From the IMG/VR virus record IMGVR_UViG_3300024433_000001, positions 1 through 58,212 of that record: a DNA stretch of 58,212 nucleotides. One strand, 5' to 3'. Under the pieces are notes generated by a model that worked only from the letters and a program-made list of their open reading frames with translations, did no database searches and was not told the origin of the DNA. Made by a program: the position numbers and the translations under genes. The stretch comes from a virus (Duplodnaviria; Caudoviricetes). Shown piece after piece: positions 3,156 to 58,212 of this stretch; positions within the stretch are counted from its first letter, which is position 1, and each line of letters begins with the position of its first letter.

Positions 3156-3620
3156 TCACAGGCATTGCAAGGCCCCCTTCGGATTTTTCAGCCCTCCATC
3201 TCTGTTATCGGCGTGCACATGTCCATCTTCATAATCGTCTCTTACCCAATCAAAATGATTCCGGGCCGCTTCGCCGACTGCCCGCTGCGGAATGCGGTCG
3301 CCCACCCGAACCACCTTAGCATAGAAATCCATCGCTATTCCACCATGGCCCGGCAGATGCTTCGAGTGCCGCGATACCGGCCCGCCATTGTCCAGCCAGC
3401 CGAACCGCGCGCCAAGCGCCGCATTGTCCGCCCGTGTCCGCGTACCGCTTGTGACGATGATTGCGACCTCTTCACCTTTCAACTGGCAGAGCTCGGCCCG
3501 CACCGCTTCAGCGCTGCGGATAAGCGACGGATGCACCGTGACAAGCCCTTCGCCATTCGCAAACTCGTACAGCCGGAAATGCTCGGACAACGGGAAATCG
3601 TTTGGTCGTTCACCCATCAT
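3156..3620 (-). CDS. Peptidase M15A-type endolysin
   Basis: LSEHFRLYEF, VTSGTRT..DN, SKHL...AMDF and HVHAD zinc-peptidase motifs. Confidence 0.8.
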   Translation of the reverse strand: MMGERPNDFPLSEHFRLYEFANGEGLVTVHPSLIRSAEAVRAELCQLKGEEVAIIVTSGTRTRADNAALGARFGWLDNGGPVSRHSKHLPGHGGIAMDFYAKVVRVGDRIPQRAVGEAARNHFDWVRDDYEDGHVHADNRDGGLKNPKGALQCL

Positions 3621-12139: not shown

Positions 12140-13713
12140 CGGCCTCCAACGATCGCAAGAATTTGTGTTGCACGCGGATCTTGAGGATTCGCCTGCGCCC
12201 ATTCTAAAGCTGCCTGATATTCGGCTAGTGCCGTTGTTGGCACTGGCGCACCTGCAGTTGGTGGCGGAGCCCAACCCCTTTGTGGGGTTTCCGTTACTGG
12301 CGTAGGCTGACTTAATGGTGCTAGATTAGATGTGTCTACGGGCACAACAGATTCGCGTGCAGTTCTTTGGCGATTAGCCCGAAACTGCGGCAACCTGGAT
12401 GTGTTTACGGGCACGACAGATTCAGGTGCAGTTTTTTGGCGATTAGCCCGAAACTCTTGGAATCCAGAAACTATCGCTCTGGTCAAAGGCGGAAGCGCAT
12501 TATGCACCAGTTCAGACCAAGTCCGGGTTTGGGCAGTCGGCGGTGGCAGATTAGTGTCTTCAAACTCACTGGTCTGCGCCAAATCCATAGCGGCTTGAGC
12601 AATCGTTTCCAAAGTGACCCCGTCGGGTAACCCCTGTAATCCATAGAAAGTAAGCGCACTCATGAGCGCATAACCAGCTTCCGTTTCGCGGCCCATTGCA
12701 TCAAAAAATGCAGATGACGGAAGGCCCGTGTATGGAATGAAAATATCCACAAGTTCCCCAAGTTTCCCCGCAGAACCATATTGCTGTAAAGCAGATGGCT
12801 TCACTTGTTCTTCGGACGGGGCTTCTACAAGTTCTGTGTATGCGGGGGTCTCGCCCTTGAACGTAACGGCGCCAAGACCCGTCCCAGGGGTTCCTACAAC
12901 TCGTGGACGCTCGAGGGGTGGGGGAACCAATGTCGTTACCCTTGGGGCCGAAGGTTGAGCTGTAGTCGCCGATGAACCTGGCCTTGGCACGATTGCTTGT
13001 TGGCGCTGAGGCGGCGCAATCTCATAAATACCCGTACTTGGCGTTCCTACAATACGGGGTTGCATAAGTTGTCGTTGGCGATATTGTTGAAGGGCGTCAG
13101 CTTCCTGGCCCCGTAGGCCAAGCAATTGCTGGCGGTATTGTTGATCGCCACGAAGCTCTTGGCCCCGTAGACCAAGCGATTGCTGGCGGTATTGTTGATC
13201 GCCACGAAGCTCCTGGCCCCGCAGACCAAGCTCCTGGCCCCGCAGACCAAGCGATTGCTGGCGGTATTGTTGAAGGGCGGCGGCCTGCTGGCCTTGTAGA
13301 TCAAGTGCCCCTTCAGCGCGCGTTTCCTGTCTACCAAACCGCTGTTCTGCAAGCGCATCTTGGGCCCATTGTCGAATCTGTTCATTTTGCCTTAGTTGTG
13401 CGTTAATCGCATCTTGTTGTATTTGTTGACGCAACTGATAACCCAACACAGTCTGTGCGCGTGCACCCGCCAAACCCCTATCGCGTATCGTTTGGTAATA
13501 TGGCATAAAGTTTCCCTGCCACGCAGGTGCCATACGAGTCAACGCGCCAGCCGTACTAGCGGCAGCACCATATCTTTGGCGGGTGCTCAGACCACGTTGC
13601 CTTTGCCAGTATAATGGCCGGCTTGGCAACGAAGAAAGCGATGTTATGCTACGGCTCGGCCCATATTTGGCCTGGGCGCGGCCCCTTCGTTGTGTTGATA
13701 AACCTAAAGGCAT
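12136..13713 (-). CDS. Gln/Pro-rich internal virion (ejection) protein with tandem repeats
   Basis: Lies between tail nozzle and giant protein; QQYRQQxLGLRGQE repeats. Confidence 0.6.
   Translation of the reverse strand: MPLGLSTQRRGRAQAKYGPSRSITSLSSLPSRPLYWQRQRGLSTRQRYGAAASTAGALTRMAPAWQGNFMPYYQTIRDRGLAGARAQTVLGYQLRQQIQQDAINAQLRQNEQIRQWAQDALAEQRFGRQETRAEGALDLQGQQAAALQQYRQQSLGLRGQELGLRGQELRGDQQYRQQSLGLRGQELRGDQQYRQQLLGLRGQEADALQQYRQRQLMQPRIVGTPSTGIYEIAPPQRQQAIVPRPGSSATTAQPSAPRVTTLVPPPLERPRVVGTPGTGLGAVTFKGETPAYTELVEAPSEEQVKPSALQQYGSAGKLGELVDIFIPYTGLPSSAFFDAMGRETEAGYALMSALTFYGLQGLPDGVTLETIAQAAMDLAQTSEFEDTNLPPPTAQTRTWSELVHNALPPLTRAIVSGFQEFRANRQKTAPESVVPVNTSRLPQFRANRQRTARESVVPVDTSNLAPLSQPTPVTETPQRGWAPPPTAGAPVPTTALAEYQAALEWAQANPQDPRATQILAIVGGR
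13073..13282. repeat. Intragenic tandem repeats encoding QQYRQQSLGLRGQELRGD units
   Basis: Repeated ttgctggcggtattgttg and ctggccccg(c/t)agaccaagc units. Confidence 0.85.
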
Positions 13714-13734: not shown

Positions 13735-14187
13735 TTAATCAGGAACGCCGCTCCTGTTTGTAAACTTCGACATGGGCTGCCAAACAGAGTCGCCCTTGGC
13801 CGCAGTCCATAGTTGGTTATCGCCAGTCCCATTAGTCATAAAACTTGAACTGGCCCAGAACACTATCTTGAAAAACTCAGGAATAGCAGGTAATTTTGCT
13901 ACTGTGTCTATCCTAAAGGCTGCATGTAACCACCAGAAAATCTCGTTTATCCGCTCGGAATTAACTGCGATGTTTCGAGTATTCTGGTTAACCTCGGTCG
14001 CCACATTAGTTTCGGCGGAAACGGCCGGCTCTGCTACTATCCCCGCAGTCGGAGTTTGCGCCAGCGTTTCAACGTTATCCTGTAATTCCTGGATAAGTTG
14101 GCGGGCAACCACATCTGTTACGTCGGTTGGCGCTGTCATGCCGAAGTCTGTCGCCGACTGTCTTCTTTTCCGTTTAATATCAACCAT
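13735..14187 (-). CDS. Hypothetical virion protein
   Basis: ORF overlapping the upstream stop within the virion operon. Confidence 0.6.
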   Translation of the reverse strand: MVDIKRKRRQSATDFGMTAPTDVTDVVARQLIQELQDNVETLAQTPTAGIVAEPAVSAETNVATEVNQNTRNIAVNSERINEIFWWLHAAFRIDTVAKLPAIPEFFKIVFWASSSFMTNGTGDNQLWTAAKGDSVWQPMSKFTNRSGVPD

Positions 14188-17100
14188 AATCCAACCTCGA
14201 CATAGAAGTTGCCAAGGCCATCTCGTGAATTAGAATTACTGGATCGTCGCTGTTTGGAACAAGGTCAATAATCCACTCTCGCTCAGGTCGTTTTTGGGGC
14301 AGCCTGAAAGCGTCCCCGCTGGCAACTGTTTTTGTAATCTGCAACTGGCCCCCAGCATACAATTTGAGCGTCAGTCCGTAACCATCCGCAAGCACACGGC
14401 CACAAGTGAAACATATGGGCCGAGTTGCGACAACCCGTTTATCCAGCCACGTGAACGGATCTTGTTCATATCGCACCCTCACAAGGCCGCTATTCACCGT
14501 ATATTGCTGACAGCCGATAAACAATAACTCAGAAATCTTACCACAATGTTTGATGTCCAACTGCCAATCTCGCGCATTAGGCAAAGTCACCCCGTCCTCC
14601 AGCTTGTCTTTAAACTTGAACTCTTGACTATCAAGAATTATGATAGGCCCATAATCCGTTCCGTTCGCAGATAGGGTAAGCTGAAGCCCAGTGTAATCCG
14701 ACGCCACTACCCGGCCTACCGAAAAGCTCCCTATATCAGCGAACCGCAATGTCTTGTTCCGCCACGCCAATTGACTGCTGCCATCACGCAACACAAGACC
14801 ATAATTGGGTATGGGGACATATTCTTCGGCGAATATACGGACCTCTTTAACGGTATAATCTACAAGATTTGTGCCTATCGGAACACCGTCATTATAATCT
14901 AAAAACCTGAATTCGACTGCACCACATACCGAACCAATGTTAAGCGCAACCTCGTCCGCGCTATCAATCTGTTTCGTCTGGGAACAGTTAGTATTTCCGT
15001 TAATAAATATCTGCATCCAAAGCGGATATTCTGTGGCTTCGACAGTAGCGCTTCTCAACTTGACCATATCAGGAAATTCGTATTGTGTGTAAAGCCACGG
15101 GGGTATAGCGGCATCGCCACTTGCCCGAACTATGCTGGTCACGGCAACTGACCTTGATGGTATAAGAAACAAATGATCAATTTCGGCGCCACATTGAACG
15201 TCCACCACCCACGCAACCGCTTTAGGTAAAGCGCCTCGTGGAAATTGAAATGGCCGGCCATCAGAAATGGCGTAGGAAAGGTTTGCCTTCTCCCCGTCAG
15301 CATAAAAATCGATTGTGGTGGTGGTGTCGTCGTCGCCGTACCCTTTGGCCCCGAGCACAGCACAAACAAATGTGTTTGGCTTCGGGAAGGCGAAATGAAG
15401 GTTGCGCCAGTTTATTCGGTTACTGAGCGCAATGCCATTTTCGCCGATTACTTGCACCTGTCGTCCAAAAATATGTACGTTAGTGACTTTGGCGTCGTTG
15501 CCGGAAAACTCAAACTCTATTGAGTTGCACGTAGGCGGAACCTTTAACTCAAGGGGGTATTCAACCCCAGACTCTAGAACAATCTCGGCAGTGCCATACT
15601 TGTCTGTGGCCCCATCAAGATAAAGGTTTATAGTCACGGCTCCGCCACCTTCCGTGTTCACCATAAGGCTTGTCAACTCTGTTGGTTCATTGAACTCATA
15701 TCGGGAATACAACCAGGACGGAATTGTCCCAGGGTTGGCAACGTGAATGTCCTTGCCCTGGATCGGTACAGGTTGGCGTGGTAAAAGAATAACACTGTCA
15801 ATTTCTACGCTACTTTCAACATCAACTTCCCATATCGCCGACTCAGGCGCACCTCTGCCGAGTGTGAATAGGTTGCCATCATAAATCTTCAGACCATAGT
15901 CGGTTGTATCGCCATTACCGTACAAATGAAGTTTGATGGGACCATCTTCGGAAGCATCTTCGGGATAACTTGTTGCGCCCACGCTGCCACAAACAAATCG
16001 TCCTTGGTCAGGGAACTTGAATAAACGCCTGCGCCAAGCCGGAGAATTGGTGAGTGTGATACCTTCGCCGCCAATTATCTCGGGTTGGCTGGCAAAGACA
16101 AGAACTTCTGTTACGGCATCATCATTACCCGCAAAATCAAACTCGATTGAACTATGACGGCCATAATCAAGTCGGAGTTCGATGCCGCTAACGATATTAG
16201 TTAATGTTTGGCTTGGCTCAGTGCTTCCATCAAAATAAAGGTTGATCTTTACCACCTTTGAGGCATGAACAATCAGGGAAGTGGGCTCAGCCTGGTCGGC
16301 AAACTCATATCGTTTGACCAACCAGGGTGGAAAGGGACCTGCGTTGATCTCATGAATGTTGCCTGAAACTAACTGCGTTTGCCGAGTAAACAACAAAAGC
16401 TCGTTAACATGTTTTGTCGTATCAACATTGACACGCCAAAATGTTCCGTCAGCCAATGTCCGGGGAAGCGTAAAAAGGGCGCCACTACTTGCATCTTTCT
16501 TGCAACTTACTATCTGCCCCTCGTCAATCGGATCGTCTTTGCCATCGGCATAAAATTTGATTGAGACAGTACCACTGCCCTGAGCTGCTATAGTGCCTGC
16601 AACAAACCTGTCTTTATGGGGAAACTTGAGCCAAATACAACGCCAGAGCAACGTGTTGGCTTCCGTAAGATGCGTGGTAAAGTCAGTAACAGTATGTAAA
16701 ACCCTGTCAAACAACTCTACCCGGCGAATTGTGGTTTCGGCATTCTTGATCTCAAACTGCCACTCGTGCGCATGGGTCAAATCGGACAACCGCACGAAAT
16801 CGTCAGATCCAATTGCGAACTCGGTAAAGTCACCACGGTCGCCTGCTATTCTGAAGGTTATTGCAGGCTCATAACTATCAGCTATAACCCGAACATAATC
16901 GAAAATAGTCTCTTGGTCGAACCAAAATCGTTTTGACCGCCACGTCAGGTTTCCGCCGCTTTTCGCTGAATATGACGTTACCGCATTTAACGTTTCATCC
17001 AGATCAAACCGGAGACCCAAAGTAGTTTCATCGGCATATTGACTTTCAATGAAAATGCTGTTATCCGCAGTCACAGCCTCCATCTTGTCGGGCGACAACG

Positions 17101-18544
17101 TAAGCCACTGTTCCCGGTTGAAGTGTCCATTTGTTACAATCTGCAGCTGGCTGCCCGTTGCGGCGGCAAGGCCATCGTAGGTAGCCCAAAACACTGTCTG
17201 GTTAATTCGGCACAGGGATTTGATGGTCAGCAAACATGCCGTCTCGCTCAATAGATATTTGGTCATGGTCGCTGGGTTCGAGCCTGCAACCCCGAACACT
17301 TTACCTGTTTCGCCTGACCCAACAAACACCAAAATCGTGTTGCCGCTCATAGCTATCGCCTGGACGGTTTGTTGGAAAGGAACCGTGTTTATATCGGGCC
17401 AACTATGAAAACGGTAAAAGTCTGAGAAATGCACCGTCTTTTCGTGAAAGGCTACAGCAAACCCCGCCGGATGAATCAGGCTACCTTTTAGAAATGTCTG
17501 TTTATTCGTATCGTCTGGTCCGGCCCCGGGGTAGTTTCCAAATGGTGGAATAATCTCATTTTGTGTAATAGGCATTGTTTGGGTGAATTGCCAGTGGTCG
17601 GCGTTAACATCGCCAACCAAAAGAAAGTCATCACCACCTGTTTGGGAGCAGTACAACCTGTTTTCGCTGTAGCCCGAACGGGGCGTGTTCAACGCTAAAA
17701 CCTGTCCTGGTTTAATCATAATTCGTGAAGATAACTCGCTTGGGGGGCCTTCTGCGCCAAAGGTTGTTATCAAACTTTGCACGAAATAATAGTGTTTCCG
17801 GCGCGTATCGGCATAGTTCAGGTTGACCTTGAATATCACCCAGGCCGGTTGCGGCCTATAATACATCTGTGGATAATCCCGAACGAAAAAGTCTTGGTCG
17901 TTTCGAGGACCGTAAACGTCGGTTATTTGCCAATGAGCATAAATGTTCCCATTGGCGTCAACAAGAGGTACTTGTTGCGACGGGATTTCGGGATCGGCAT
18001 ATGTTGTCGCCGCAGGAAGGGTTAAGGCAGCATTTGGGCCGCCGTTTGCGGGATCTGCGGAAAAACAGAATTGATATCGCGGCCCTCGCACATAATATGG
18101 GCTGTCGCTCTTTACAAACAGCTGCCGTATTCCCTGATCTATCCATCCCTCAAGGTAAAACCCTTCCTCTGTATACATGGCGACATTCAACGCAAGTTCG
18201 TCTGCTCGAATTAGAGAGACCATCCATGTTCCATCAGAGGCAATAGACGAAACCCAGTCGCGGGCCCAGACCCTTAACCAAGTTTGGGGGTTACAAATAT
18301 AGTTTAGACCCATCTTGGTTGGCGCGTCCGGCTTCTTAATATAACCCACATCGCCCGCGGGCACGCCAGCCAACAAACCGCCGTTACTATCCCGCATGGA
18401 TGCAAACGGCCCCTTTATGTTCAATGGTGTAAGCGCGCCACTGGTAACATCGACATTATGCGCAGTCCACGCCGCACCTTCCGGCAACTGTTCCGCGTTC
18501 AACCGTGGGATCATACCCGTGAACTTGTCAATTCGTATTGGCAT
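14180..18544 (-). CDS. Tail nozzle / tubular protein B-like stabilisation protein with nine repeated C-terminal ~100-aa domains
   Basis: N-terminal IDKFTGMIPRL...AHNVDVTSGALTP; EGPPSELS; HFSDFYRFHSWP; repeated W-x4/5-F modules. Confidence 0.7.
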   Translation of the reverse strand: MPIRIDKFTGMIPRLNAEQLPEGAAWTAHNVDVTSGALTPLNIKGPFASMRDSNGGLLAGVPAGDVGYIKKPDAPTKMGLNYICNPQTWLRVWARDWVSSIASDGTWMVSLIRADELALNVAMYTEEGFYLEGWIDQGIRQLFVKSDSPYYVRGPRYQFCFSADPANGGPNAALTLPAATTYADPEIPSQQVPLVDANGNIYAHWQITDVYGPRNDQDFFVRDYPQMYYRPQPAWVIFKVNLNYADTRRKHYYFVQSLITTFGAEGPPSELSSRIMIKPGQVLALNTPRSGYSENRLYCSQTGGDDFLLVGDVNADHWQFTQTMPITQNEIIPPFGNYPGAGPDDTNKQTFLKGSLIHPAGFAVAFHEKTVHFSDFYRFHSWPDINTVPFQQTVQAIAMSGNTILVFVGSGETGKVFGVAGSNPATMTKYLLSETACLLTIKSLCRINQTVFWATYDGLAAATGSQLQIVTNGHFNREQWLTLSPDKMEAVTADNSIFIESQYADETTLGLRFDLDETLNAVTSYSAKSGGNLTWRSKRFWFDQETIFDYVRVIADSYEPAITFRIAGDRGDFTEFAIGSDDFVRLSDLTHAHEWQFEIKNAETTIRRVELFDRVLHTVTDFTTHLTEANTLLWRCIWLKFPHKDRFVAGTIAAQGSGTVSIKFYADGKDDPIDEGQIVSCKKDASSGALFTLPRTLADGTFWRVNVDTTKHVNELLLFTRQTQLVSGNIHEINAGPFPPWLVKRYEFADQAEPTSLIVHASKVVKINLYFDGSTEPSQTLTNIVSGIELRLDYGRHSSIEFDFAGNDDAVTEVLVFASQPEIIGGEGITLTNSPAWRRRLFKFPDQGRFVCGSVGATSYPEDASEDGPIKLHLYGNGDTTDYGLKIYDGNLFTLGRGAPESAIWEVDVESSVEIDSVILLPRQPVPIQGKDIHVANPGTIPSWLYSRYEFNEPTELTSLMVNTEGGGAVTINLYLDGATDKYGTAEIVLESGVEYPLELKVPPTCNSIEFEFSGNDAKVTNVHIFGRQVQVIGENGIALSNRINWRNLHFAFPKPNTFVCAVLGAKGYGDDDTTTTIDFYADGEKANLSYAISDGRPFQFPRGALPKAVAWVVDVQCGAEIDHLFLIPSRSVAVTSIVRASGDAAIPPWLYTQYEFPDMVKLRSATVEATEYPLWMQIFINGNTNCSQTKQIDSADEVALNIGSVCGAVEFRFLDYNDGVPIGTNLVDYTVKEVRIFAEEYVPIPNYGLVLRDGSSQLAWRNKTLRFADIGSFSVGRVVASDYTGLQLTLSANGTDYGPIIILDSQEFKFKDKLEDGVTLPNARDWQLDIKHCGKISELLFIGCQQYTVNSGLVRVRYEQDPFTWLDKRVVATRPICFTCGRVLADGYGLTLKLYAGGQLQITKTVASGDAFRLPQKRPEREWIIDLVPNSDDPVILIHEMALATSMSRLDYG

Positions 18545-49341: not shown

Positions 49342-50250
49342 TCATTTAGGCTCGACGGCCCCGCAAGTTGTAGGGTTATGGTCATCACAAGCGTTTCGGT
49401 TACGCGGGGCCGCCAAGAACAAGTCCAGTGTTTCTTTTGGCTCGTATTCAAAATCGTTAAATGGAATATGCTCGAACCACCGCAAGCGCGAATAATACCG
49501 CATCATTCGTTTTAATTCTCTGTCGGTCCACCCTGGGGCCACATAACTATCTTTAGAAAGCGCATCAAGTGGCTGAAACCGCATTGGATTAGGCCGCAAA
49601 TTGAATGAGCGTACCCATTCCAATCGAGACTTTGCGTTTTCCGGATCATCATCAAACCCTATAAGAACATAGATAGAAATATCCGTTAGATTTGCTCGCC
49701 GCGCTGCCTGAATGGCATCAGCAACAATGACTTCGTCTTTGCTCGAATCAAAAGCGAATCGTATTTTGACATGTTGTAACGTTGCCAACAAACCGGCATG
49801 TTGTGACGTAAATAAACCCGCATCTAATCCCTGATTAAAGTCCACAGCCCTAAAAGGCCGAAGGGAATCAATTACACGCTCAAAATGTTTCCAAGATGAT
49901 TCAAGAATGTTGTTGTCACAAATCATGGGCGCAGGTCGCCATGACGATAGTTCGCAAAAGTCCCCCTCAACCTTTGGAACAATGCAATATGGACAACGGT
50001 TTGGACAACCTCGTGTTGTGAAGGTTGCACAAGGATTGTGAAAAAGAATGGGTTCTATTGGTGCCTCTTCTGGCGTTTCGTCAGCCCAAGGCGCGCCTAA
50101 AAGGCTGACGGCTGGACCACCAGCAACAACACGTCCTTGATGTGCTGTTGCAATTATCTTGGCATTGGGCAACAACCACGTAAACGGGACAGATATATAC
50201 AGTGCTTCCCCAATGCGCCACTTAGCTATGTTTTTGTGCCACTGATTCAT
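49342..50250 (-). CDS. Radical SAM protein
   Basis: TRGCPNRCPYCIVP (CxxxCxxC), DNN, DFNQGLD, YVLIGF. Confidence 0.85.
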   Translation of the reverse strand: MNQWHKNIAKWRIGEALYISVPFTWLLPNAKIIATAHQGRVVAGGPAVSLLGAPWADETPEEAPIEPILFHNPCATFTTRGCPNRCPYCIVPKVEGDFCELSSWRPAPMICDNNILESSWKHFERVIDSLRPFRAVDFNQGLDAGLFTSQHAGLLATLQHVKIRFAFDSSKDEVIVADAIQAARRANLTDISIYVLIGFDDDPENAKSRLEWVRSFNLRPNPMRFQPLDALSKDSYVAPGWTDRELKRMMRYYSRLRWFEHIPFNDFEYEPKETLDLFLAAPRNRNACDDHNPTTCGAVEPK

Positions 50251-51635
50251 TCTTCACCACACGGGGCCGCCGAGGTTTCTGCTTCATGTAGATATATCTG
50301 GCTTGTCCGTTTCCTGGCCATATCACAATATTTAGGGTTAAGCTCGATACCAATAGCGTTTCGGCCAAGCCGCTGCGCTACGAGCAACGTTGTGCCCGAT
50401 CCCACGAAACAATCCAAGACCGTACAGGGAATGGGGGTAGGATAACTGTTCGTAACATCCATACCCCCAAAGTCTATATCGCCACACCCAACACAGTTAC
50501 AAGATGGTTGCCAACCAACTGTTTTCTTTGCGGCACAGTATTCGGCCCCCGCGATTCGGGCTGCTTGTCGCAATAAGGCTAGTCTGCCGACAGAACTACC
50601 GCTTGGATAGGCCGAATGTGTTTCAGCCTTATGCGACGCGGCGCTTTTTTTTACAACACGAATCCAGGGCGATCCACACTTCGGACAACATCCCTTTTCG
50701 CTTGTGCCGGCCTTGATACATCGCTCGACAAGCGCTTGGGGAAAAACGGCAAAGTGACTTTCCGAGAATGGCTCGGTTGGGATGGTCCATACATCACGGA
50801 CATTACGGCCCTTACTGGCATCGCCATAACGCTTCCTTCCGTTGTGTAACCCACCAGTCGTTCGGTTACCAGACTTGAGAAGCCCGAACGTCTTGTGATA
50901 TTCGGTCTCGCGCCGATATTCGCGGTCTGGATAAACAAACGGTTCCCGTATTGAGTCGCCATCCCAAAAATAGGTTGGCGATTTCGTAAGCAGAAATATA
51001 TGCTCATATGACTTTGTTGGCCTATCCGTCACGCTCTCGGGCATTGCATTCGCCTTTTCCCAGATAATGTCTGAGCGCAACCACCAGCCATCGGCCTGGA
51101 GAGCAAGCGCGGCCCTAGCGGGTATCATGCAAAGCTGCTTACGTTTCAGGCCGGCTTGAGACCAATCTGTTTTCGCCATATCATTATCCGTTATTACGGC
51201 TTTGCCGTGACCAGATCCGATGCCCTTTCCGCTCCCTGAATAACTGTCGCCTAGCACCAGCCAGAGCGTGCCATCGTCACGCAGCACACGCCGCACTTCC
51301 TGGAATACTTGAACGAGCTGGTCTACATAGGCCGCCGGTGTTTTCTCAAGGCCAAGTTGTTTGTCAACCCGTCGCGCACCGCATCTGGCGCAAATTTCCT
51401 TGTATCCTTCCTGGGATTGGGCAACTGTCTTTTTGCCTCCCCTTAATGTAGATGATGCGATTTGCGGATTGTTCCTAACCTTGTGGGCACATTCCGAATC
51501 TCCGCCCTCCCACGCCCTAGTACCAAAATCCCGGAGGCCCCAGTAAGGCGGCGAGGTACAAACGGTGTGTATTGATTCCGTCTTCATACCGCTTAATACC
51601 TCCAGGGCATCGCCCTGAATCACCTCAATGCTCAT
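50247..51635 (-). CDS. Beta-class DNA amino-methyltransferase (N4-C/N6-A)
   Basis: TSPPYW, HFAVFP, VLDCFVGSGTT, IGIELNPKY. Confidence 0.92.
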   Translation of the reverse strand: MSIEVIQGDALEVLSGMKTESIHTVCTSPPYWGLRDFGTRAWEGGDSECAHKVRNNPQIASSTLRGGKKTVAQSQEGYKEICARCGARRVDKQLGLEKTPAAYVDQLVQVFQEVRRVLRDDGTLWLVLGDSYSGSGKGIGSGHGKAVITDNDMAKTDWSQAGLKRKQLCMIPARAALALQADGWWLRSDIIWEKANAMPESVTDRPTKSYEHIFLLTKSPTYFWDGDSIREPFVYPDREYRRETEYHKTFGLLKSGNRTTGGLHNGRKRYGDASKGRNVRDVWTIPTEPFSESHFAVFPQALVERCIKAGTSEKGCCPKCGSPWIRVVKKSAASHKAETHSAYPSGSSVGRLALLRQAARIAGAEYCAAKKTVGWQPSCNCVGCGDIDFGGMDVTNSYPTPIPCTVLDCFVGSGTTLLVAQRLGRNAIGIELNPKYCDMARKRTSQIYLHEAETSAAPCGEE

Positions 51636-52141: not shown

Positions 52142-54085
52142 TCATGCTGTTTTTCCCTTCCCGACAAAACTACAGTTGCCATCGTTTATCCAAACTACGC
52201 CCGTAGGCCGCATCGCCTTGGTCAACTGATCAATATCCGGCTCCTGACGAAGACCCCATGCGCCGGCCAGAATAATGGTCCCATATTCTGCAAAAGCAGT
52301 TTCAAGTTGTTGAAAAATGATGGGTTTGAACTTCCCGTCTAGTCCATCAAGATCGTCAATCAATACGATTCCGTTATCTGCAAACGCTGTAGCAACCGCG
52401 ATCTGCGTAAGGGCTTGCTCACCTTTTGACGCTTGGGCGACAGGACGTTTTGCGGCGCCAGTATGCCCCAACATTACTGTTACGGTTTTACCACCAACAT
52501 CAACAGCCAATTCGTACCCATAAGCTCGAAGTTGTTCGTTGCACCGTTTCTCGAATATCCCGAGGTCGTCGACCATGAACTTCTTGAACAATGCGCCATC
52601 ATGCAAAGCGTTCACAGCCCAGTCCAAGTGAGATTTCTCGGCCCCAAGATCGGCCAAGTGACTTTGATGTTGCCCGAACTCCTTCAACAAGGATAGCGCC
52701 TTTTCAACATCAAGGCCATGTCTGATGCGTTTGTCCAATTTGTCTATCTCAACCTCGATATCTTCGCGTGAACGGTTAGAACATGGTATCAGCGCGGCGA
52801 GTTGTTTCAGTTCCGGGTGTGCTTCACGAAGGTCAGCCGCAAGTGGCCCAAGTTTCTCGTAAACGGCTTCGACTTCTTGGACAGCCTTTTTGCGCAACGC
52901 GTTTCTGTCCTCAATAAGCTGGTTAAATGTGTGCTCCCGATCCAGAAGCGTCCCAAGTTTCGTATTTGCTTCTGCAATTGTATCATCCATAGGAGAAAGC
53001 AGCTCTTTCCGGGCCTTCTCCCCAAGCCGTCTTTTACATGTTGGACATATAGCCCCATCAGCCAATTTGGCGCGTTGCGTCTTGGCTTGGTTCAATATGT
53101 TCTCTGCTTGGGCGCTTTGCCCATGCAGATCAGACAATTTGTCACCCAATTCTTTTATCTCGGCTCCGCAAGCCTCTTGTTCTCTTTCGAGTGAATCCAC
53201 TTGGGTTTGGAGCGGCGCAATTTTGTCCTCGATCTTCGCAATGCGATCTCTTACCTCTGCGCGTTTAGCATCAAGCCGATCTGCCGTCATCCCGCCCTCA
53301 GAAAGGCGGCCCCTTTCCTCGAGCAACGCATCTCGTTCTGCGCTAATAACACGAATCCGATCCCGGACATTAGACAAATCTGCGACATTCAGGGGCGTAC
53401 CATTGGTCGAGCAGGGGATTTCCGTGGTCTCTAGCTCGGCAATCTTGGTTTCAACCATCTTGATATCCCTGTTGATATCTGTTCGTCTCGTGTAGGCCGC
53501 TTGTCCGATAGATTTCAGACTTTCGAGGGAATCGAGCCCAGGCCATTGCTCAAGCCATTTCGCGTGGTCCCCAGCCGTAGCCATTAACTGTTTTCGGTCA
53601 ATATCGCCTACCAACATTTCTGACAAGACATCTCCAAGCTCTTTTGATGTGACATATGTCTTGGGGTTGCCCGCACATTCGGCATGTCGCGAGTTGGCGC
53701 CGATATAGTCCCAGAACATTCGCCGTACCTCGCGAGGATCGCCGGCAAACTTGACGCGGTTGTGTTTGTCAAACACCGTGACCGCAGCGTGGCCGGCTTT
53801 GATGGTCATTGACATGGTCAACTGCTCGCATTGTTTGCCATTCAGGGTCAGCCCAACCTCGACTGTGGCTTCCTTACCGTGGTCGCCTACTAAATCCAGA
53901 TTTTTGAGCCGATTGCCGTTTACATCGAACACACGACCCCAGATCAACATTCGTATAGCCTGAATCAGGCTGCTTTTACCAGCGCCGTTCAACCCCGTCA
54001 GAAACAGTCCTGTCGGTAGATTTTCCAATGTGGCAGATTCAATTCCGCGAAAGTTTTTGATCTTCACGTTGTCAATCGTAACCAT
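52142..54085 (-). CDS. Rad50/SbcC-like coiled-coil ABC ATPase
   Basis: IKNFRG, GLNGAGKS Walker A, central CPTC zinc hook, SKGEQ signature, VLIDDLDGLD Walker B/D-loop. Confidence 0.85.
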   Translation of the reverse strand: MVTIDNVKIKNFRGIESATLENLPTGLFLTGLNGAGKSSLIQAIRMLIWGRVFDVNGNRLKNLDLVGDHGKEATVEVGLTLNGKQCEQLTMSMTIKAGHAAVTVFDKHNRVKFAGDPREVRRMFWDYIGANSRHAECAGNPKTYVTSKELGDVLSEMLVGDIDRKQLMATAGDHAKWLEQWPGLDSLESLKSIGQAAYTRRTDINRDIKMVETKIAELETTEIPCSTNGTPLNVADLSNVRDRIRVISAERDALLEERGRLSEGGMTADRLDAKRAEVRDRIAKIEDKIAPLQTQVDSLEREQEACGAEIKELGDKLSDLHGQSAQAENILNQAKTQRAKLADGAICPTCKRRLGEKARKELLSPMDDTIAEANTKLGTLLDREHTFNQLIEDRNALRKKAVQEVEAVYEKLGPLAADLREAHPELKQLAALIPCSNRSREDIEVEIDKLDKRIRHGLDVEKALSLLKEFGQHQSHLADLGAEKSHLDWAVNALHDGALFKKFMVDDLGIFEKRCNEQLRAYGYELAVDVGGKTVTVMLGHTGAAKRPVAQASKGEQALTQIAVATAFADNGIVLIDDLDGLDGKFKPIIFQQLETAFAEYGTIILAGAWGLRQEPDIDQLTKAMRPTGVVWINDGNCSFVGKGKTA

Positions 54086-54111
54086 TGGTCAATAACCCCT
54101 ATCTTGCGGCG

Positions 54112-54717
54112 TTATATATGACAAACCTCTTTTAGCTTTACTGTGTCCATATCCCAAGGCATTACCAATGCGCCAATACGCCATTTGCCCCCCGATTTTA
54201 TTTCAAAGATTAGCGGGTGCAACAACAAGTTAGCTGGGCGGGTCCCTAACCATCTGCCGCCCTGGTCTGTGAACAACTGGATATAATCGAGACTTACAGC
54301 CAAAAGCGTAAAGAAATCTTTGGGGTTGTGATTCCGAAGTAGGCGCACAAGAATGTCCGCGTTATCGGGGTCCGATACCGGGTTTACTAAGTCAACAAAT
54401 TCAAGAACACAATAATCTTTGTACCGAAGACGAACGGACCGCATTAACTCTGTTATTGTAATTGGGCGGGTCGGCATTTTCGCCTTTTGACCAAACTTGA
54501 ATCCCCCACAATGGTCATAGCTGAATCGGCCACGGGATATGGCCTTTCGGAACTTCGGTGCGGTAAACGTCACCGGCAAATAATGGGTGTCAATAAGCCA
54601 ATGTCTATTTGTCAACCGACGCCCATCAAAGTATGTCTTATACTCTAGCTTGTTTATCCGCGTTTTTAGCACAATTGGTTTTCTTTCTATCTTCACCGCA
54701 CTGTTTGTAGCCATCAT
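54112..54717 (-). CDS. Hypothetical protein (201 aa)
   Basis: GGAGG RBS; tiles the operon. Confidence 0.6.
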   Translation of the reverse strand: MMATNSAVKIERKPIVLKTRINKLEYKTYFDGRRLTNRHWLIDTHYLPVTFTAPKFRKAISRGRFSYDHCGGFKFGQKAKMPTRPITITELMRSVRLRYKDYCVLEFVDLVNPVSDPDNADILVRLLRNHNPKDFFTLLAVSLDYIQLFTDQGGRWLGTRPANLLLHPLIFEIKSGGKWRIGALVMPWDMDTVKLKEVCHI

Positions 54718-55918
54718 TCAACAACCTCCATGCTGCCGCAGCCACTGCCGGAACCTGCCCATTGCCAAGGGCTTTAAGTCGGTCCACGCGATGGGCTATT
54801 TTCTGTGCAACACGAGGGATGGCAGCCTCCCAGGTTCCCTCCAGCCAAGCCGCTCTGCCGTATGATGGATAAATCTGTGGCACCAGATGCACAGGGTCTG
54901 CAAGTTCTCCAGCCTTATGTTCTTGTGATTTCCGTCGAGGTGGTGTGTCTGAAGTCGCCGTTTTATTCCACAAGCCTCGCAACTCTTCTTGCGATATTTG
55001 CTTGCCCGCCACAGCCAACCCGACTTGGATAAAGATTTCCTTGTGTTCGCACACGAAAGAGTGCAGTACTTTCGCCTCTTCCAAGCCCCCCAATCCTCCA
55101 GGCGCGTTCCGAACCTCTTGCGCCGCATCATTTTGCCGCATGTTTGGCACCGTTTCGGTTTTTCCACCTTTCGCCGCATGGGCTTCTCCTTGCCTGAACC
55201 CCCTAAGCCACTTGCTAAACGATAGCACGTTCATGGGGTCTAAGCAAGTCCAAAATTGCGGCCAGCCCATCAAAAGTTCGACCCACTCGGGATTCAACTG
55301 GCCCTTCTCGCCCGTCGCACGCTCCATCTGCTTGCGGAACTGACCACTTATCTGGCCATGCGTTTGTGGCCCTTCGCCCCCCACATTCGGGGTCGGGAAC
55401 GTCCGCCGGGTCGGTGTCCCACCAATGGATTTCCTGACAGCATCGTTCAGGGTGAAGGTCCGTTGCGGGTTGATTCGCCCCGGGTGTTGCCCGTATCTCT
55501 TGCCCTGTCCCGCGTCTGGCGTCAGCCACATGTGTACCGCCGTGCCGAGCTTGGGCGTTGATACCTTGCCCCCCGCTTTGCGCTTCTGAAAATTCGCGTC
55601 CCCGTCCGTCAGGGCCGTACTTCTCGGACTCGGCCATAATCCACAGCCTATTTCTCCGATGTGGCGCTCCCAACTCGGCTGCCGATAGACAACGCCATCG
55701 AGCATCATACCCGCTTTCGGCCAGGTCTCCGAGTATTTGTCCGAAATATCCGTGACTCCCGGCAAGCAGGTTTGGGACGTTCTCCAAGAATACGTATTGT
55801 GGTCGTACAATGCGAACCACTGCAATTGTTTCGGGCCACAGGTTTCGTTTGTCTGTCTCGCCTCTCCGGTTACCGGCACAGGACCAGGGTTGGCAGGGGA
55901 ATCCTGCCGTAAGGACAT
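54638..55918 (-). CDS. Second (beta) polypeptide of C5 methyltransferase in an overlapping frame
   Basis: WPSP/WLTP/FPTP repeats, GQLNPEWVELLMGWP (motif IX-like), RVDRLKALGNGQVP (motif X); AAGGA before ATG 55918. Confidence 0.7.
   Translation of the reverse strand: MSLRQDSPANPGPVPVTGEARQTNETCGPKQLQWFALYDHNTYSWRTSQTCLPGVTDISDKYSETWPKAGMMLDGVVYRQPSWERHIGEIGCGLWPSPRSTALTDGDANFQKRKAGGKVSTPKLGTAVHMWLTPDAGQGKRYGQHPGRINPQRTFTLNDAVRKSIGGTPTRRTFPTPNVGGEGPQTHGQISGQFRKQMERATGEKGQLNPEWVELLMGWPQFWTCLDPMNVLSFSKWLRGFRQGEAHAAKGGKTETVPNMRQNDAAQEVRNAPGGLGGLEEAKVLHSFVCEHKEIFIQVGLAVAGKQISQEELRGLWNKTATSDTPPRRKSQEHKAGELADPVHLVPQIYPSYGRAAWLEGTWEAAIPRVAQKIAHRVDRLKALGNGQVPAVAAAAWRLLNDGYKQCGEDRKKTNCAKNADKQARV
54796..55179 (-). 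CDS. HNH endonuclease nested inside the methylase beta ORF
   Basis: CEACG...THHLDGNHKNIRLENLQTLCIWCH; N-terminal CQTC/YC..SC zinc motifs; AAGGAG RBS. Confidence 0.8.
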   Translation of the reverse strand: MRRKVEKPKRCQTCGKMMRRKRFGTRLEDWGAWKRRKYCTLSCANTRKSLSKSGWLWRASKYRKKSCEACGIKRRLQTHHLDGNHKNIRLENLQTLCIWCHRFIHHTAERLGWREPGRLPSLVLHRK

Positions 55919-56138
55919 CAACCATTCCTTGATAGATTTCAGCGCATCCGTTTTCGATGAACGCACGCACATTACCGAAAATAGGCGCATCAGTAAGCAA
56001 TCCATCTTCGATCCGTTGTGCAATAACTTTTTGGCAAAAGCAGTCAATTTCTACGTAGCCTATCGTTGTCCAACCCAACAAATGTTGTGTGGCGAGCAGT
56101 CCGCCCCCTGCGCCACTGAATAAACTAAGCTCATACAT
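55215..56138 (-). CDS. DNA cytosine-5 methyltransferase, alpha polypeptide (motifs I-VIII)
   Basis: LSLFSGAGG, GFPCQPWS, FLENV, HRRNRLWI; lacks motif X; GAGG RBS before ATG 56138. Confidence 0.9.
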   Translation of the reverse strand: MYELSLFSGAGGGLLATQHLLGWTTIGYVEIDCFCQKVIAQRIEDGLLTDAPIFGNVRAFIENGCAEIYQGMVDVLTAGFPCQPWSCAGNRRGETDKRNLWPETIAVVRIVRPQYVFLENVPNLLAGSHGYFGQILGDLAESGYDARWRCLSAAELGAPHRRNRLWIMAESEKYGPDGRGREFSEAQSGGQGINAQARHGGTHVADARRGTGQEIRATPGANQPATDLHPERCCQEIHWWDTDPADVPDPECGGRRATNAWPDKWSVPQADGACDGREGPVESRVGRTFDGLAAILDLLRPHERAIV

Positions 56139-56400
56139 CCTCTGTTTTTTCCACTTCGATACCGACAACGGCATAACCGAACTTGTCTGCAATCCGCTCT
56201 TCTAATTTTTCGAGCATCCATTGGGTTACTTGAATGCCTTGACGGGTTACAAAACAGTGGCTTTTGGGTATCCAAATAGGATAAAGACACTCCTCAACTT
56301 TGGCAGAGTTCTGTGTCTCCCGATACCAATAGTTGACTGAAACCAGCAAACCCTTTTCAGTCTCATCCTCCACAACGGCATCAGTTAATGTCTGTTTCAT
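56131..56400 (-). CDS. Hypothetical protein (paralog of 49054..49323)
   Basis: MKQTL...ETEK.LLVS...LYPIWIPK...QGIQVTQW. Confidence 0.7.
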   Translation of the reverse strand: MKQTLTDAVVEDETEKGLLVSVNYWYRETQNSAKVEECLYPIWIPKSHCFVTRQGIQVTQWMLEKLEERIADKFGYAVVGIEVEKTEDV

Positions 56401-56424
56401 ATTATGTGACCCCCTTGTCGCCAA

Positions 56425-57282
56425 CTAAAACAATTCGTCCTTCATGGAATCATCGTTCTCCACCATCACCGATTCTGGTTCAGATGTTGCTTGTTCCGGC
56501 TGATCTGTAAGCTCGGGTTCGGGCAGAACCTCCGTAGTTTGGGTATCAAACTCCGTATCGGAACTTTGGTTCAAATCGGGCTGTCCCGACCCAAGCTGCT
56601 TCTCCAGATCCTCGAGCGTTGTAGGCGCATCAAATGGCTCATGGACTTCTTCTGCTACAACATCAATAGCTGCCGGCAGATCCCGGGCCTCTTCGGCGAT
56701 GTAAAGTCCTTTCAGCAAGTCAGGAAACGTGTCACGCAAGCAGAATCCACGTGGTCGGTAACGTAACATACGTTTTGGGTACGTAACCCAAGGTGTCGGT
56801 TGCCCAGTTTTCCCTGTTTTGCCCCAAAGCCCCGCCAGCTTGGCGTCTGCAATACTAAACTCAACCCTTACTGGTTTATCACGGCCTTTCCGTTTGGCTT
56901 CACAAACACCCCTGAAATCGTCATTCGGATACTCGCCCTCATACCATTCGTTGATATACTCGCAAAGGGGTGACGCCTCACAAAGGCCCTTTGCGGCATC
57001 GCCCCATACCGAAGGCCGACCGTTTATAACCGCAATGTTTTGTATACTTTGCATCGGAAGAAGCCCGATCTCGGCCCCCATCTGGATTGCGATAAGGACG
57101 CTCTCGGGCCGTTCCATTTGCTTGGGCGCGAAACCAGAAGCGACTACGTATTGGGCAAATCGATACATTGTACTCAAACTTGTTAGTTGTAACCCACGAG
57201 ACCCCGCCGCTATAAGCGCCTTTTCATTCGGCAGATTCTCTTTTGTCTCGCTTGGTTTAGGCATATCTACTTTTACAGCCAT
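56425..57282 (-). CDS. recT: RecT-like single-strand annealing protein
   Basis: GAEIGLLPMQSIQNIAVINGRPSVWG, AKLAGLWGK, PWVTYPKRML..R...LRDTFPD; acidic tail; next to YqaJ. Confidence 0.8.
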   Translation of the reverse strand: MAVKVDMPKPSETKENLPNEKALIAAGSRGLQLTSLSTMYRFAQYVVASGFAPKQMERPESVLIAIQMGAEIGLLPMQSIQNIAVINGRPSVWGDAAKGLCEASPLCEYINEWYEGEYPNDDFRGVCEAKRKGRDKPVRVEFSIADAKLAGLWGKTGKTGQPTPWVTYPKRMLRYRPRGFCLRDTFPDLLKGLYIAEEARDLPAAIDVVAEEVHEPFDAPTTLEDLEKQLGSGQPDLNQSSDTEFDTQTTEVLPEPELTDQPEQATSEPESVMVENDDSMKDELF

Positions 57283-57303
57283 GGTTGTCGTCTCCCTTAA
57301 CGT

Positions 57304-58212
57304 TTACTTGCCCACCTTCAACTTGCGCAAGACTCTAAACTGACTATCTTTTTGCTCGAATGGAATGTCCGTTGTAACCAAACGGTCAAGGTATTCATCC
57401 GCAACCGTGATTTTTCCTTTGCGCACTTGCGTTTTGAGGCTATACCGGACATTGCCAAACTCGCCAAATGTCGCATCGCCGATTTGTTCCTTGAACCAAT
57501 TCTCTAGCTCGATCTTCTCGGTCTCGAGCTTTTTCAGCATTGCCTTGATCTCGATTAGCCGTTTGTCCTGATTGACCGTATCAGACGATAAAGTTGCCGT
57601 GGCGCCGTTATCGTTCGGGTGTAGTAGGCATAACGTTTCCTTCGTTGATTTCGACCCGTCTACTGGCGGCGCAGTGCCGGTCTGAACCCGGTCCCAGAAT
57701 CGTTTAAGATGCTCCACGACCTTGAACAACAACCCATCCTGCCGATCAAAGTCTCGAGTGAAAAAGTCGCGGTTGCCAATCAAACCAGCTACCGACCCCC
57801 ATTTAAGGTTCAGAATCAACATCTGCGCCTGATTTTGAACTTGGTGGTGTAATGGCACAGACCCACCCCTCCAGTCCTTTGCGCTAAACTGACCAGAAGT
57901 CTTTAACTCGAGCGCGCCAAACCCTCGTTTACCGTCGTAAACAATCCTGTCGGGCGTACAAAACAGAAAATCCCAATCCGTACTTCTGCGGAATGCGAAC
58001 TCTCCAGGATCGTGTGTCCGCCGTCCCGTTTCGTCCTCGTAAAGCGTGGTAACAATTGGTTCCAAAAGGTGGCCCAACCGCATTGCAAGCGTCTCCCTAG
58101 CGTTAGGCAGGACGATCCCGCGCTTTTCGGCCCAGAGCGTATAGGGCGATTTGTATGGATTAAGCCCTAACGCAGTGGCGACTTCCGATGCGCCAATTCC
58201 CGCTTGGCGTTC
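57304..58212 (-). CDS. YqaJ-like viral recombinase/exonuclease (3' part; starts at 178 across the junction)
   Basis: GHLLEP, CTPDR, LELKT, QVQNQ motifs. Confidence 0.9.
   Translation of the reverse strand, partial: ERQAGIGASEVATALGLNPYKSPYTLWAEKRGIVLPNARETLAMRLGHLLEPIVTTLYEDETGRRTHDPGEFAFRRSTDWDFLFCTPDRIVYDGKRGFGALELKTSGQFSAKDWRGGSVPLHHQVQNQAQMLILNLKWGSVAGLIGNRDFFTRDFDRQDGLLFKVVEHLKRFWDRVQTGTAPPVDGSKSTKETLCLLHPNDNGATATLSSDTVNQDKRLIEIKAMLKKLETEKIELENWFKEQIGDATFGEFGNVRYSLKTQVRKGKITVADEYLDRLVTTDIPFEQKDSQFRVLRKLKVGK
58086..58212. repeat. Terminal direct repeat copy of 1-127
   Basis: Exact identity. Confidence 0.95.

Follow-up and report, generated by a model that had tools for sequence, protein, structure and literature searches.

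Three overlapping reading frames in a phage methylase locus

The DNA analysed in this study, hereafter referred to as the window, is a stretch of 58,212 nucleotides (positions 1 to 58,212 of IMG/VR virus record IMGVR_UViG_3300024433_000001) from a virus of the Caudoviricetes (Duplodnaviria). Three minus-strand open reading frames (ORFs), one in each forward frame, share about 1.5 kb of the window: ORF A and ORF B, which probably encode the two subunits of a C5 DNA methyltransferase (methylase), and a gene for a putative HNH endonuclease that lies wholly within ORF B. The positions of these ORFs and of the features within them are given in Table 1. Counted from the likely start of ORF B at 55918, A and B overlap by 704 nt. 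Along ORF B lie, in this order, the repeats LWPSP, MWLTP and TFPTP, a motif IX-like segment (LNPEWVELLMGWPQFWT), the HNH cassette, and a motif X-like segment (DRLKALGNGQVP). As argued below, this arrangement is best explained as a two-subunit methylase that was invaded by a homing nuclease gene, with the methylase frame kept open through the nuclease by selection and the cassette neither spliced nor excised.

Table 1. Features of the methylase and nuclease locus (window coordinates)
Feature	Position	Strand	Remarks
ORF A, alpha-like subunit	55215–56138	−	307 amino acids; motifs I–VIII in residues 1–175; from sequence, Pfam and PHROG
ORF B, beta-like subunit	54638–56047	−	+1 relative to A; maximal open frame from TTG at 56047
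Likely ORF B start (ATG)	55918		426 amino acids, public gene call P0001; AAGGAA six bases upstream
HNH endonuclease gene	54796–55179	−	127 amino acids, +1 relative to ORF B; N-terminal zinc ribbon and HNH core
Shine-Dalgarno AAGGAG of the HNH gene	55186–55191	−	six bases before the ATG, within ORF B codons
Double-coding stretch	55640–55918	−	N-terminal ~95 amino acids of B overprinted on A motifs IV–VIII
Motif IX-like QLNPEWVELLMGWPQFWT in ORF B	55247–55300	−	from sequence and conservation in homologues
Insertion relative to HNH-free alleles	54850–55195	−	~347 nt, ~115 ORF B codons; ends approximate
Double-coding 3′ end of the HNH gene	54796–54849	−	last ~18 HNH codons over the B pre-X segment WLEGTWEAAIPRVAQK
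Motif X-like DRLKALGNGQVP in ORF B	54749–54784	−	3′ of the insertion, in the same frame
Vestige of the usual beta start	56060–56134	−	B-frame ATG four bases after the A ATG; TAG after 24 codons

ORF A and ORF B probably correspond to two halves of a C5 methylase

When ORF A was compared with Pfam, residues 4–175 matched PF00145 (DNA_methylase) with an expectation value (E) of 1.1e-33. Because this match was limited to positions 4–166 of the 324 in the model, ORF A appears to represent the N-terminal catalytic half only. The C5 catalytic motifs FSGAGGG, GFPCQPWS, ENVPNL and HRRNR, which represent motifs I (FxGxG), IV (PCQ), VI (ENV) and VIII (QxRxR-like), were all found in ORF A, and phrog_363 also matched it (E 1.9e-51). 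The last ~130 amino acids of ORF A are an out-of-frame shadow of the ORF B repeat region. For ORF B, residues 3–224 matched phrog_1008 ('DNA methyltransferase', E 1.4e-24), and residues 340–411 matched the C-terminal end of phrog_363 (also 'DNA methyltransferase'). Because the Pfam methylase model gave no match to ORF B at E ≤ 0.01, the motifs of this ORF were named by resemblance, and the two segments are those that we take to be motifs IX and X. A preliminary description of this locus, made from the sequence alone, had assigned motifs I–VIII and no motif X to ORF A, as the Pfam match now bears out. It had also placed ORF B at 54638–55918 with an overlap of ~700 nt; these coordinates stand, although the frame opens further upstream, at 56047, than was described, and its names for motifs IX and X hold by resemblance.

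A tblastn search of cultured phages with the B region (E ≤ 1e-5) and a megablast search with 53500–57500 both returned no match, and the methylase family was reached through metagenome proteins and loci. The comparisons that follow draw on 160 related loci, 80 of them taken from viral contigs and 80 from bacterial or archaeal genomes, in which A, B and the HNH were mapped by tblastn. ORF B is conserved along its whole length in its homologues. Among 37 of these, P210, W212, V213 and M217 are invariant in the IX region and R377, R380, G385, N386, Q388 and V389 in the X region; LNPEWVELLMGWP and LKALGNGQVP are likewise invariant or nearly so.

Structure prediction placed the two chains together. 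A model of the complex of A (residues 1–180) with B gave an ipSAE of 0.91 (median of three runs), a mark reached by 58 of 80 solved complexes and by 2 of 110 mismatched pairs, whereas the best control scored 0.00; the alignments used in the runs were our own. The runs shared at least 71% of contacts, and the partner had a predicted local distance difference test score (pLDDT) of at least 50. The predicted interface comprises B residues 38–80, 172–177, 216–242 and 355–404, with the insert outside it, and B residues 376–404 pack on the motif I region of A. The predicted complex is in line with the view that A and B are two subunits of one C5 methylase.

The nested gene encodes a putative HNH nuclease

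PHROG HNH endonuclease families matched the nested ORF at E 1.2e-9 to 5.6e-7. The predicted protein carries two CxxC...CxxC sets together with an HH...N...H core, and no variation was seen among 10 nested copies at C11, C14, C39, C43, C67, C70, H79, H80, N92, C97, C100, H101 or H105. Because the catalytic residues are invariant, the nuclease appears to be under purifying selection. In the AlphaFold 2 model (pLDDT 86.7), strands at residues 76–80 and 93–97 and a helix at 98–111 make up a beta-beta-alpha-metal core. When the HNH was used in a profile search of the PDB, DotN (E 1e-4) and the HNH of IscB (E 5e-4) were returned, and the top Foldseek matches were T5 SciA (E 0.066, probability 0.91), EcoKMcrA (probability 0.93), DotN, Cap5 and Cas9 HNH domains. 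Close homologues of the nuclease, with 39–54% identity over ~123 amino acids, were found at nine other loci, and a more distant subtype was found at seven further loci. Many of the other nested copies have GGAG, GAGGA or GGAGG 5–10 bases before their ATG.

At its 3′ end the nuclease gene reaches beyond the inserted DNA. The last ~18 HNH codons run into conserved methylase sequence, and both readings are conserved there, as RLG..(V/P)(A/G)GR(M/L)P.L in the HNH frame and as W.(D/E)G.WE.(A/G).PRV in B; this segment is therefore truly double-coding. The preliminary description had reported an HNH gene with an AAGGAG ribosome-binding site, nested between motifs IX and X in a frame other than that of ORF B, with ORF B open across it, and all of these features, coordinates included, were recovered in the present analysis.

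The methylase frame is kept free of stop codons across the nuclease gene

In the window, ORF B contains no stop codon across the HNH gene, compared with 4.12 expected when the HNH codons were shuffled synonymously, and only 0.4% of 500 such shuffles were free of stops. The methylase frame is the −1 frame of the nuclease in all 17 nested copies, and in every one of them this frame lacks stops (0 in total, compared with 89.5 expected from synonymous shuffles). When the +1 frame over the same 17 copies was examined, 94 stops were counted against 79.1 expected. Five HNH relatives that lie outside methylases (three annotated HNH endonuclease genes and two unannotated ORFs) have 11–18 stops in the −1 frame, as expected. 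Moreover, two loci in cultured phages were found through the HNH alone. In gp45 of Staphylococcus phage CUB-EPI_14 the host frame has 0 stops versus 11.2 expected; in Komagataeibacter phage phiKX1 there is 1 stop versus 6.2 expected, and from the coordinates of the open frame we read this single stop as probably the methylase's own. At the level of sequence, these combined counts prove statistically that selection acting at silent sites of the nuclease maintains the open host frame.

The segment of ORF B that is read through the cassette is predicted with low confidence (pLDDT < 50 for B residues 255–351), and the motifs that recur in it merely shadow the nuclease; CxxCG read one base early, for example, gives (L/M)RxLW. 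Beyond this loop, motif X is invariant in the 37 B homologues, most of which bear the insertion, which argues that the read-through protein is still selected.

Two observations concern the cultured carriers. CUB-EPI_14 gp45 (L164:842–2647) is a one-chain C5 methylase of 601 amino acids, with a related HNH in the +1 frame and the cassette upstream of motif IX. The phiKX1 locus (L163, LC644975.1 11409–15708) combines the type 1 methylase layout described below with an HNH; there the methylase alpha chain and the HNH are unannotated, and the record shows two 'hypothetical protein' fragments only.

The nuclease is an insertion with a patchy distribution

Seven HNH-free type-2 alleles (L005, L008, L094, L114, L120, L137 and L151) have motifs IX and X in the same frame as each other and ~115 residues fewer than the window. 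When these alleles were aligned, the missing residues were found to lie between '...W(L)xG' and 'WxDGxWExAxPRV', which sets the insertion at roughly 55195–54850 in the window and places motif X in the frame of ORF B.

One explanation for such an arrangement would be that the HNH protein is a working partner of the methylase, the two forming an ultra-compact module that resembles restriction-modification or acts against competitors. The nuclease would then cut unmarked host or rival phage DNA, and nesting would secure co-inheritance and co-expression. The invariance of the catalytic residues is compatible with such a partnership, as are the HNH relatives nested in quite different C5 methylases at different sites (for example, in CUB-EPI_14) and the 14 of 36 pairs in which HNH identity exceeds A-domain identity. 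However, only 17 of the 161 family loci carry the HNH, and the loci whose A domains are nearest to that of the window on the A-domain tree, namely L014 (68% identity) and then L015 and L005, are HNH-free. On this tree (141 rows), 14 changes are required to account for the 15 carriers, as many as with shuffled labels. L001 and L003 have A domains that are 97% identical and HNHs that are 56% identical, whereas for L001 and L002 the corresponding values are 71% and 89%. Across pairs, HNH and A-domain identities correlate with r = 0.34, and histories this discordant are to be expected of a mobile element rather than an obligate pair. In addition, the HNH relatives outside methylases adjoin capsid or terminase-region genes and have no methylase beside them. 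The patchy and discordant distribution thus appears to favour homing over a functional pair, and we regard partnership as unlikely.

Overlap of A and B is the norm in the methylase family

In nearly all of the 160 related loci, A lies in frame f and B in frame f+1. These loci include prophages of Pseudomonas, Acinetobacter, Halomonas relatives and E. coli, in which both frames are open for ~300 codons. When the layouts were classified relative to A, 118 of the 161 loci had motif IX at +1 and motif X back in the A frame (type 1). Motifs IX and X were both at +1 in nine loci that lack an HNH; a further 11 loci, the window among them, share this layout and carry an HNH at +2. Three loci combined the type 1 layout with an HNH at +1, and 20 could not be classified.

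Stop codons and silent sites were then compared with expectation. Over the catalytic domain of A, the B frame contains 0.75 stops per locus, compared with 3.12 expected from synonymous shuffles of A (142 loci), whereas the +2 frame contains 7.9 compared with 6.8 expected. Past residue 60 of A, none of 145 loci has a stop in the B frame, and in 122 of the 145 the open stretch begins no later than residue 5. In 73 of 102 loci the B frame has an ATG four bases after the A start (ATGAATGAG); at this site Asn is encoded as AAT 70 times, and AAC is absent from the eight most frequent codons. Codon choice in A is also strongly biased where it fixes residues of B: Ala140 is encoded by GCC in 99% (36% expected), Gly143 by GGG in 96% (16% expected), and Arg112 by CGA in 93% (36% expected). 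The conserved B residues set in this manner through synonymous sites of A read YD..SW(K/R)T.Q..WP.(A/W)GM. Much of the B N-terminus shadows A (read one base later, NELALF becomes MSWLFS and GFPC becomes DSPA), and the excess of identity in the N-terminal overlap of B was modest, with its largest value over A residues 121–172 (0.108 versus 0.064 in the control frame); codon choice at single sites told more. Collectively, these comparisons confirm, as far as codon usage and stop counts can, that the A/B overlap is the norm of the family and is kept by selection.

An alternative is that A and B are not separate chains, and that a programmed +1 frameshift near RLWIMA / GLWPSP fuses them into one canonical methylase. 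A join at this point would indeed give the canonical order of motifs I–VIII, variable region, IX and X. However, upstream of the junction all 145 loci keep the B frame open over more than 110 codons, residues of B there are fixed through synonymous sites of A, and a B-frame ATG stands four bases after the A start in 73 of 102 loci. The A frame, moreover, stays open at the junction, where no slippery or stop-stimulated motif was seen, and in the 118 type 1 loci motif X is back in frame A, so that a second shift would be needed. The openness of the B frame, the fixed silent sites and the early ATG therefore point to two separately translated chains, and we consider a frameshift fusion very unlikely. 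Of the early B start that is usual in the family, the window retains only a vestige, closed after 24 codons; B must thus start internally.

Several further observations were made on this family. Across the family, a single gene holds two complete overlapping ORFs of ~250–310 codons, as in L105:3685–4620, L102:3871–4831 and L092:3478–4609. In E. coli PT62 (L170:702–1461), RefSeq annotates the alpha frame only, and a +1 ORF of 251 codons is unannotated. In the type 1 locus L105 (L105:4477–4606), the same nucleotides encode motif IX and the tail (LNPDWVEWLMGWPIGWTDLKPL...) in one frame and the pre-X and X region (EPRLGRVADGVAHRMDRLKAIGNG...) in the other. On the A-domain tree, motif X frequently moves from one frame to the other (17 changes). 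In the window, the HNH frame continues after the HNH stop (54721–54795, minus strand) as PIAWTDLKPLAMGRFRQWLRQHGGC*, which appears to be a relic of a type 1 beta-chain tail and hints that the X region of the window descends from a double-coding ancestor.

Splicing and sequence artefacts are highly unlikely explanations of the locus

Homing HNH genes are usually intron-borne, as is generally known and as the published account in PMC11855218 also has it, and the cassette might therefore be removed before function as a group I or group II intron or as an intein, with the open frame being incidental. No Rfam match was found in 54300–56500 on either strand at E ≤ 1, however, and Pfam detected no intein or Hint domain in ORF B. 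In addition, the HNH ORF fills nearly all of the ~347 nt insertion and extends 54 nt beyond it, which leaves no room for a ribozyme core, and removal of the cassette gives no reason for the 0 versus 89.5 stops in the host frame. We consider splicing highly improbable. The preliminary description had proposed that a nuclease invaded the methylase gene and is tolerated by overprinting rather than by splicing, and this proposal is supported by the HNH-free alleles, the stop counts and the negative Rfam and intein searches.

The least credible explanation is that errors of assembly or sequencing, or decay into a pseudogene, have split the frames by indels: three frames within 1.5 kb are what uncorrected indels produce, and among the sequencing runs listed a single DNA run, probably the source, and no RNA run contains the sequence, but the same layout occurs in dozens of independent assemblies, isolate genomes and cultured phages, every frame has conserved, selected residues, and the contig of a second assembler (~31x depth; made from that same single run and thus not from independent reads) was identical over 54400–56400, with 0 differences and 0 gaps.

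Surrounding genes

The locus lies in a phage recombination module with a RecE-like exonuclease, RecT and an SbcC-like protein, and the same contig also encodes a terminase, a portal and an internal virion protein. An ORF of 97 amino acids directly upstream of A (56131–56424, minus strand) had no Pfam or PHROG match; its stop overlaps the A start (ATGTATGA), which suggests translational coupling. On the other side, an ORF of 201 amino acids (54112–54717, minus strand) overlaps the 3′ end of B by 80 nt and likewise had no match in Pfam or PHROG. The window contains a second methylase, of the N6_N4 type (PF01555, E 4.8e-45), beside a radical SAM protein (50247–51635 and 49342–50250, respectively, both on the minus strand). 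A +1 ORF of 118 amino acids within the N6_N4 methylase gene (50651–51007) was considered as a second hidden nuclease and rejected; it had no family match and reads as junk. An ORF of 2885 amino acids (3617–12274, minus strand) had no PHROG match at E ≤ 1e-5, nor did the ORFs of 525, 451 and 450 amino acids that were scanned. An ORF of 1454 amino acids at 14180–18544 resembles internal virion proteins.

A proposed explanation: a nuclease gene tolerated by read-through

Given these data, we propose that a two-subunit methylase was invaded by a splicing-free homing HNH gene, and we put the probability of this explanation at about three in four. ORF A would supply the catalytic half, with motifs I–VIII, of an orphan phage C5 methylase. 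From an internal +1 start, ORF B would add three parts: a short N-terminal segment overprinted on A, the (W/F)xTP repeats of the recognition type, and motifs IX and X. The two chains would assemble as in M.AquI or M.EcoHK31I. An HNH gene of the free-standing type would have inserted between motifs IX and X and would be neither spliced nor excised. The +1 frame of this ~347 nt cassette would encode the nuclease, with its own Shine-Dalgarno sequence and ATG, while ribosomes translating B would pass through the cassette in the nuclease −1 frame and add a surface loop of ~115 residues that is probably disordered. Selection on synonymous sites of the nuclease would keep the −1 frame free of stops, so that motif X remains part of the chain. 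In phages or prophages that share the cell, HNH-free alleles would most likely be cut by the nuclease near the IX/X junction, and the gene would then be copied in by repair (homing). Translation of all three products, assembly of the subunits, methylase activity in the presence of the loop, nuclease activity and homing are inferences from these sequence data.

Several points weigh against this explanation. Pfam HNH_3 reached only 17.1 bits on the HNH ORF, below its cut-off of 24.8, and the structural matches to HNH nucleases are weak (best E 0.066). The score of the modelled complex may partly reflect memory, on the part of the model, of solved one-chain C5 methylases. When ORF B was modelled alone by AlphaFold it folded poorly (mean pLDDT 49), and this model was therefore used only to show the low confidence of the insert. 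The loci were fetched with motif IX/X patterns and ranked by B similarity, which could have given a mild advantage to uninterrupted frames. Nor are the 17 nested copies independent of each other, since some pairs are 75–89% identical. Within the loop, the excess of amino acid identity over shuffles was 0.058, compared with 0.057 in the control frame (group 1), and selection is thus claimed for openness only. The A-domain tree was quick and is weakly supported, with 27 of 136 inner branches starred; the starred branches alone force 4 changes among 6 rows and 3 changes among 5 rows in the two larger carrier groups. Finally, a constant tie of this HNH lineage to methylase genes would also fit partnership.

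A broader proposal is offered tentatively, as one that is quite possible but on which we would not yet rely. It holds that the window is one case of a large gene architecture, cross-phylum and mostly unannotated, in which C5 methylases are translated in two full overlapping frames (~250–300 codons) from starts four bases apart (ATGAATG), with one ribosome-binding site and a fixed alpha/beta ratio, and that a lineage of HNH homing genes, by avoiding stops in its own −1 frame, is able to colonise such genes, and methylase genes of other kinds, in an additional frame.

If this broader proposal is true, homing endonucleases would have, in addition to introns and inteins, a third general means of residing inside a conserved ORF, and all three forward frames of ~1.5 kb in the window would encode protein. 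To our knowledge, homing endonuclease genes have been thought to persist in conserved genes only by means of introns or inteins, or else between genes. A nuclease that is out of frame and translated through is a different solution, which was reported once, in 2025, for actinophages (PMC11855218). The present loci would extend this strategy to phages unrelated to those, in which both the nuclease lineage and the frame offset differ, and to judge from them the nested out-of-frame HNH strategy is widespread, beyond the phages of that first description. The published account raised the question of how hidden nucleases are translated (PMC11855218), and the plain Shine-Dalgarno sequence in the window would provide an answer. 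Carriers are available in culture, namely Komagataeibacter phage phiKX1 and Staphylococcus phage CUB-EPI_14, as are E. coli prophages for the two-frame methylase. Moreover, long same-strand overlapping genes of this kind are missed by standard annotation, which bears on gene calling and on studies of overprinting.

Comparison with known systems

Phages carry both free-standing and intron-borne HNH homing endonucleases of the I-HmuI type. The HNH of the window resembles these in its small core with CxxC zinc sites, and T5 SciA is its nearest solved fold. It differs from them in being embedded, without an intron, in a frame that itself codes for protein, and in having a −1 frame that is kept free of stops.

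The closest parallel is the ShiLan domain of actinophage DNA methylases, for which the term 'hidden HNH endonuclease' was used (Arsenault, Gosselin and Gogarten, Genes 2025, PMC11855218; earlier PMC9957025). According to the published description, with which the window was compared, the two elements share an insertion in a methylase that is absent from close homologues, a host frame without stops, a zinc-finger HNH in another frame, the lack of an intron or intein signature, an in-frame reading that forms a low-confidence loop, and a patchy distribution that suggests homing. They differ in several respects. The HNH of the window starts at base 2 of a host codon (+1), whereas that of ShiLan starts at base 3, as read from 'GTG at positions 18-20', and the proteins have 127 and 195 amino acids, respectively. 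The window gene has AAGGAG and an ATG, whereas ShiLan is described as having a GTG, no detectable ribosome-binding site and a proposed leaderless initiation. At the 3′ end, the HNH of the window overlaps conserved host codons, whereas the ShiLan insertion ends with TAAC. The hosts are a two-frame split C5 methylase of an environmental phage in the one case and an actinophage methylase (gp65) in the other. Among the 40 matches listed of 55 phage records, no Mycobacterium phage matched the HNH of the window. The window element is of the same kind as ShiLan, though not demonstrably of the same family, and the survey of similar elements in other phages and prokaryotes that PMC11855218 contains may already cover relatives of it.

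For the two-frame methylase, Paenibacillus larvae phage Shelly (gp55/gp56, NC_041909.1) provides an annotated counterpart, in which a +1 ORF in a DNA-cytosine methylase gene is named 'g55 internal gene'. The match between ORF A and Shelly gp55 spans residues 1–297 at ~30% identity, and there is a further match between the Shelly +1 ORF and B in the motif IX region; the 'internal gene' is an annotation, and the Shelly methylase has no HNH insertion. In literature searches on two-frame cytosine methylases, only mentions of M.EcoHK31I and M.AquI surfaced, and these searches yielded no description of a two-frame layout that extends over the full length of the gene, recurs throughout a family and has its two start codons four bases apart.

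Both of these enzymes had been cited in the preliminary description, and the comparison is apt according to their published descriptions (PMC2836561, PMC3404938). In M.EcoHK31I, a beta chain with motif IX is encoded in another frame inside the alpha gene (PMC2836561, PMC3404938). As described, it shares with the window one gene, two frames and two associating chains, with motif IX on the out-of-frame chain. Its layout of motifs I–VIII and X in one frame and IX in the +1 frame is matched by 118 of the 161 family loci but not by the window, since motif X is on alpha in M.EcoHK31I and on B in the window. The recognition domain is likewise on alpha in M.EcoHK31I, whereas a similar-looking repeat region is on the B frame in the window, and M.EcoHK31I is a restriction-modification enzyme, whereas the window appears to encode an orphan phage enzyme. 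In M.AquI, the larger chain is described as holding motifs I–VIII and the other chain as holding the distal variable region and motifs IX–X (PMC3404938), and by this description A and B of the window divide the motifs in the same way. Set beside M.AquI, the A and B of the window overlap by ~700 nt in different frames, with a truly double-coding stretch between them.

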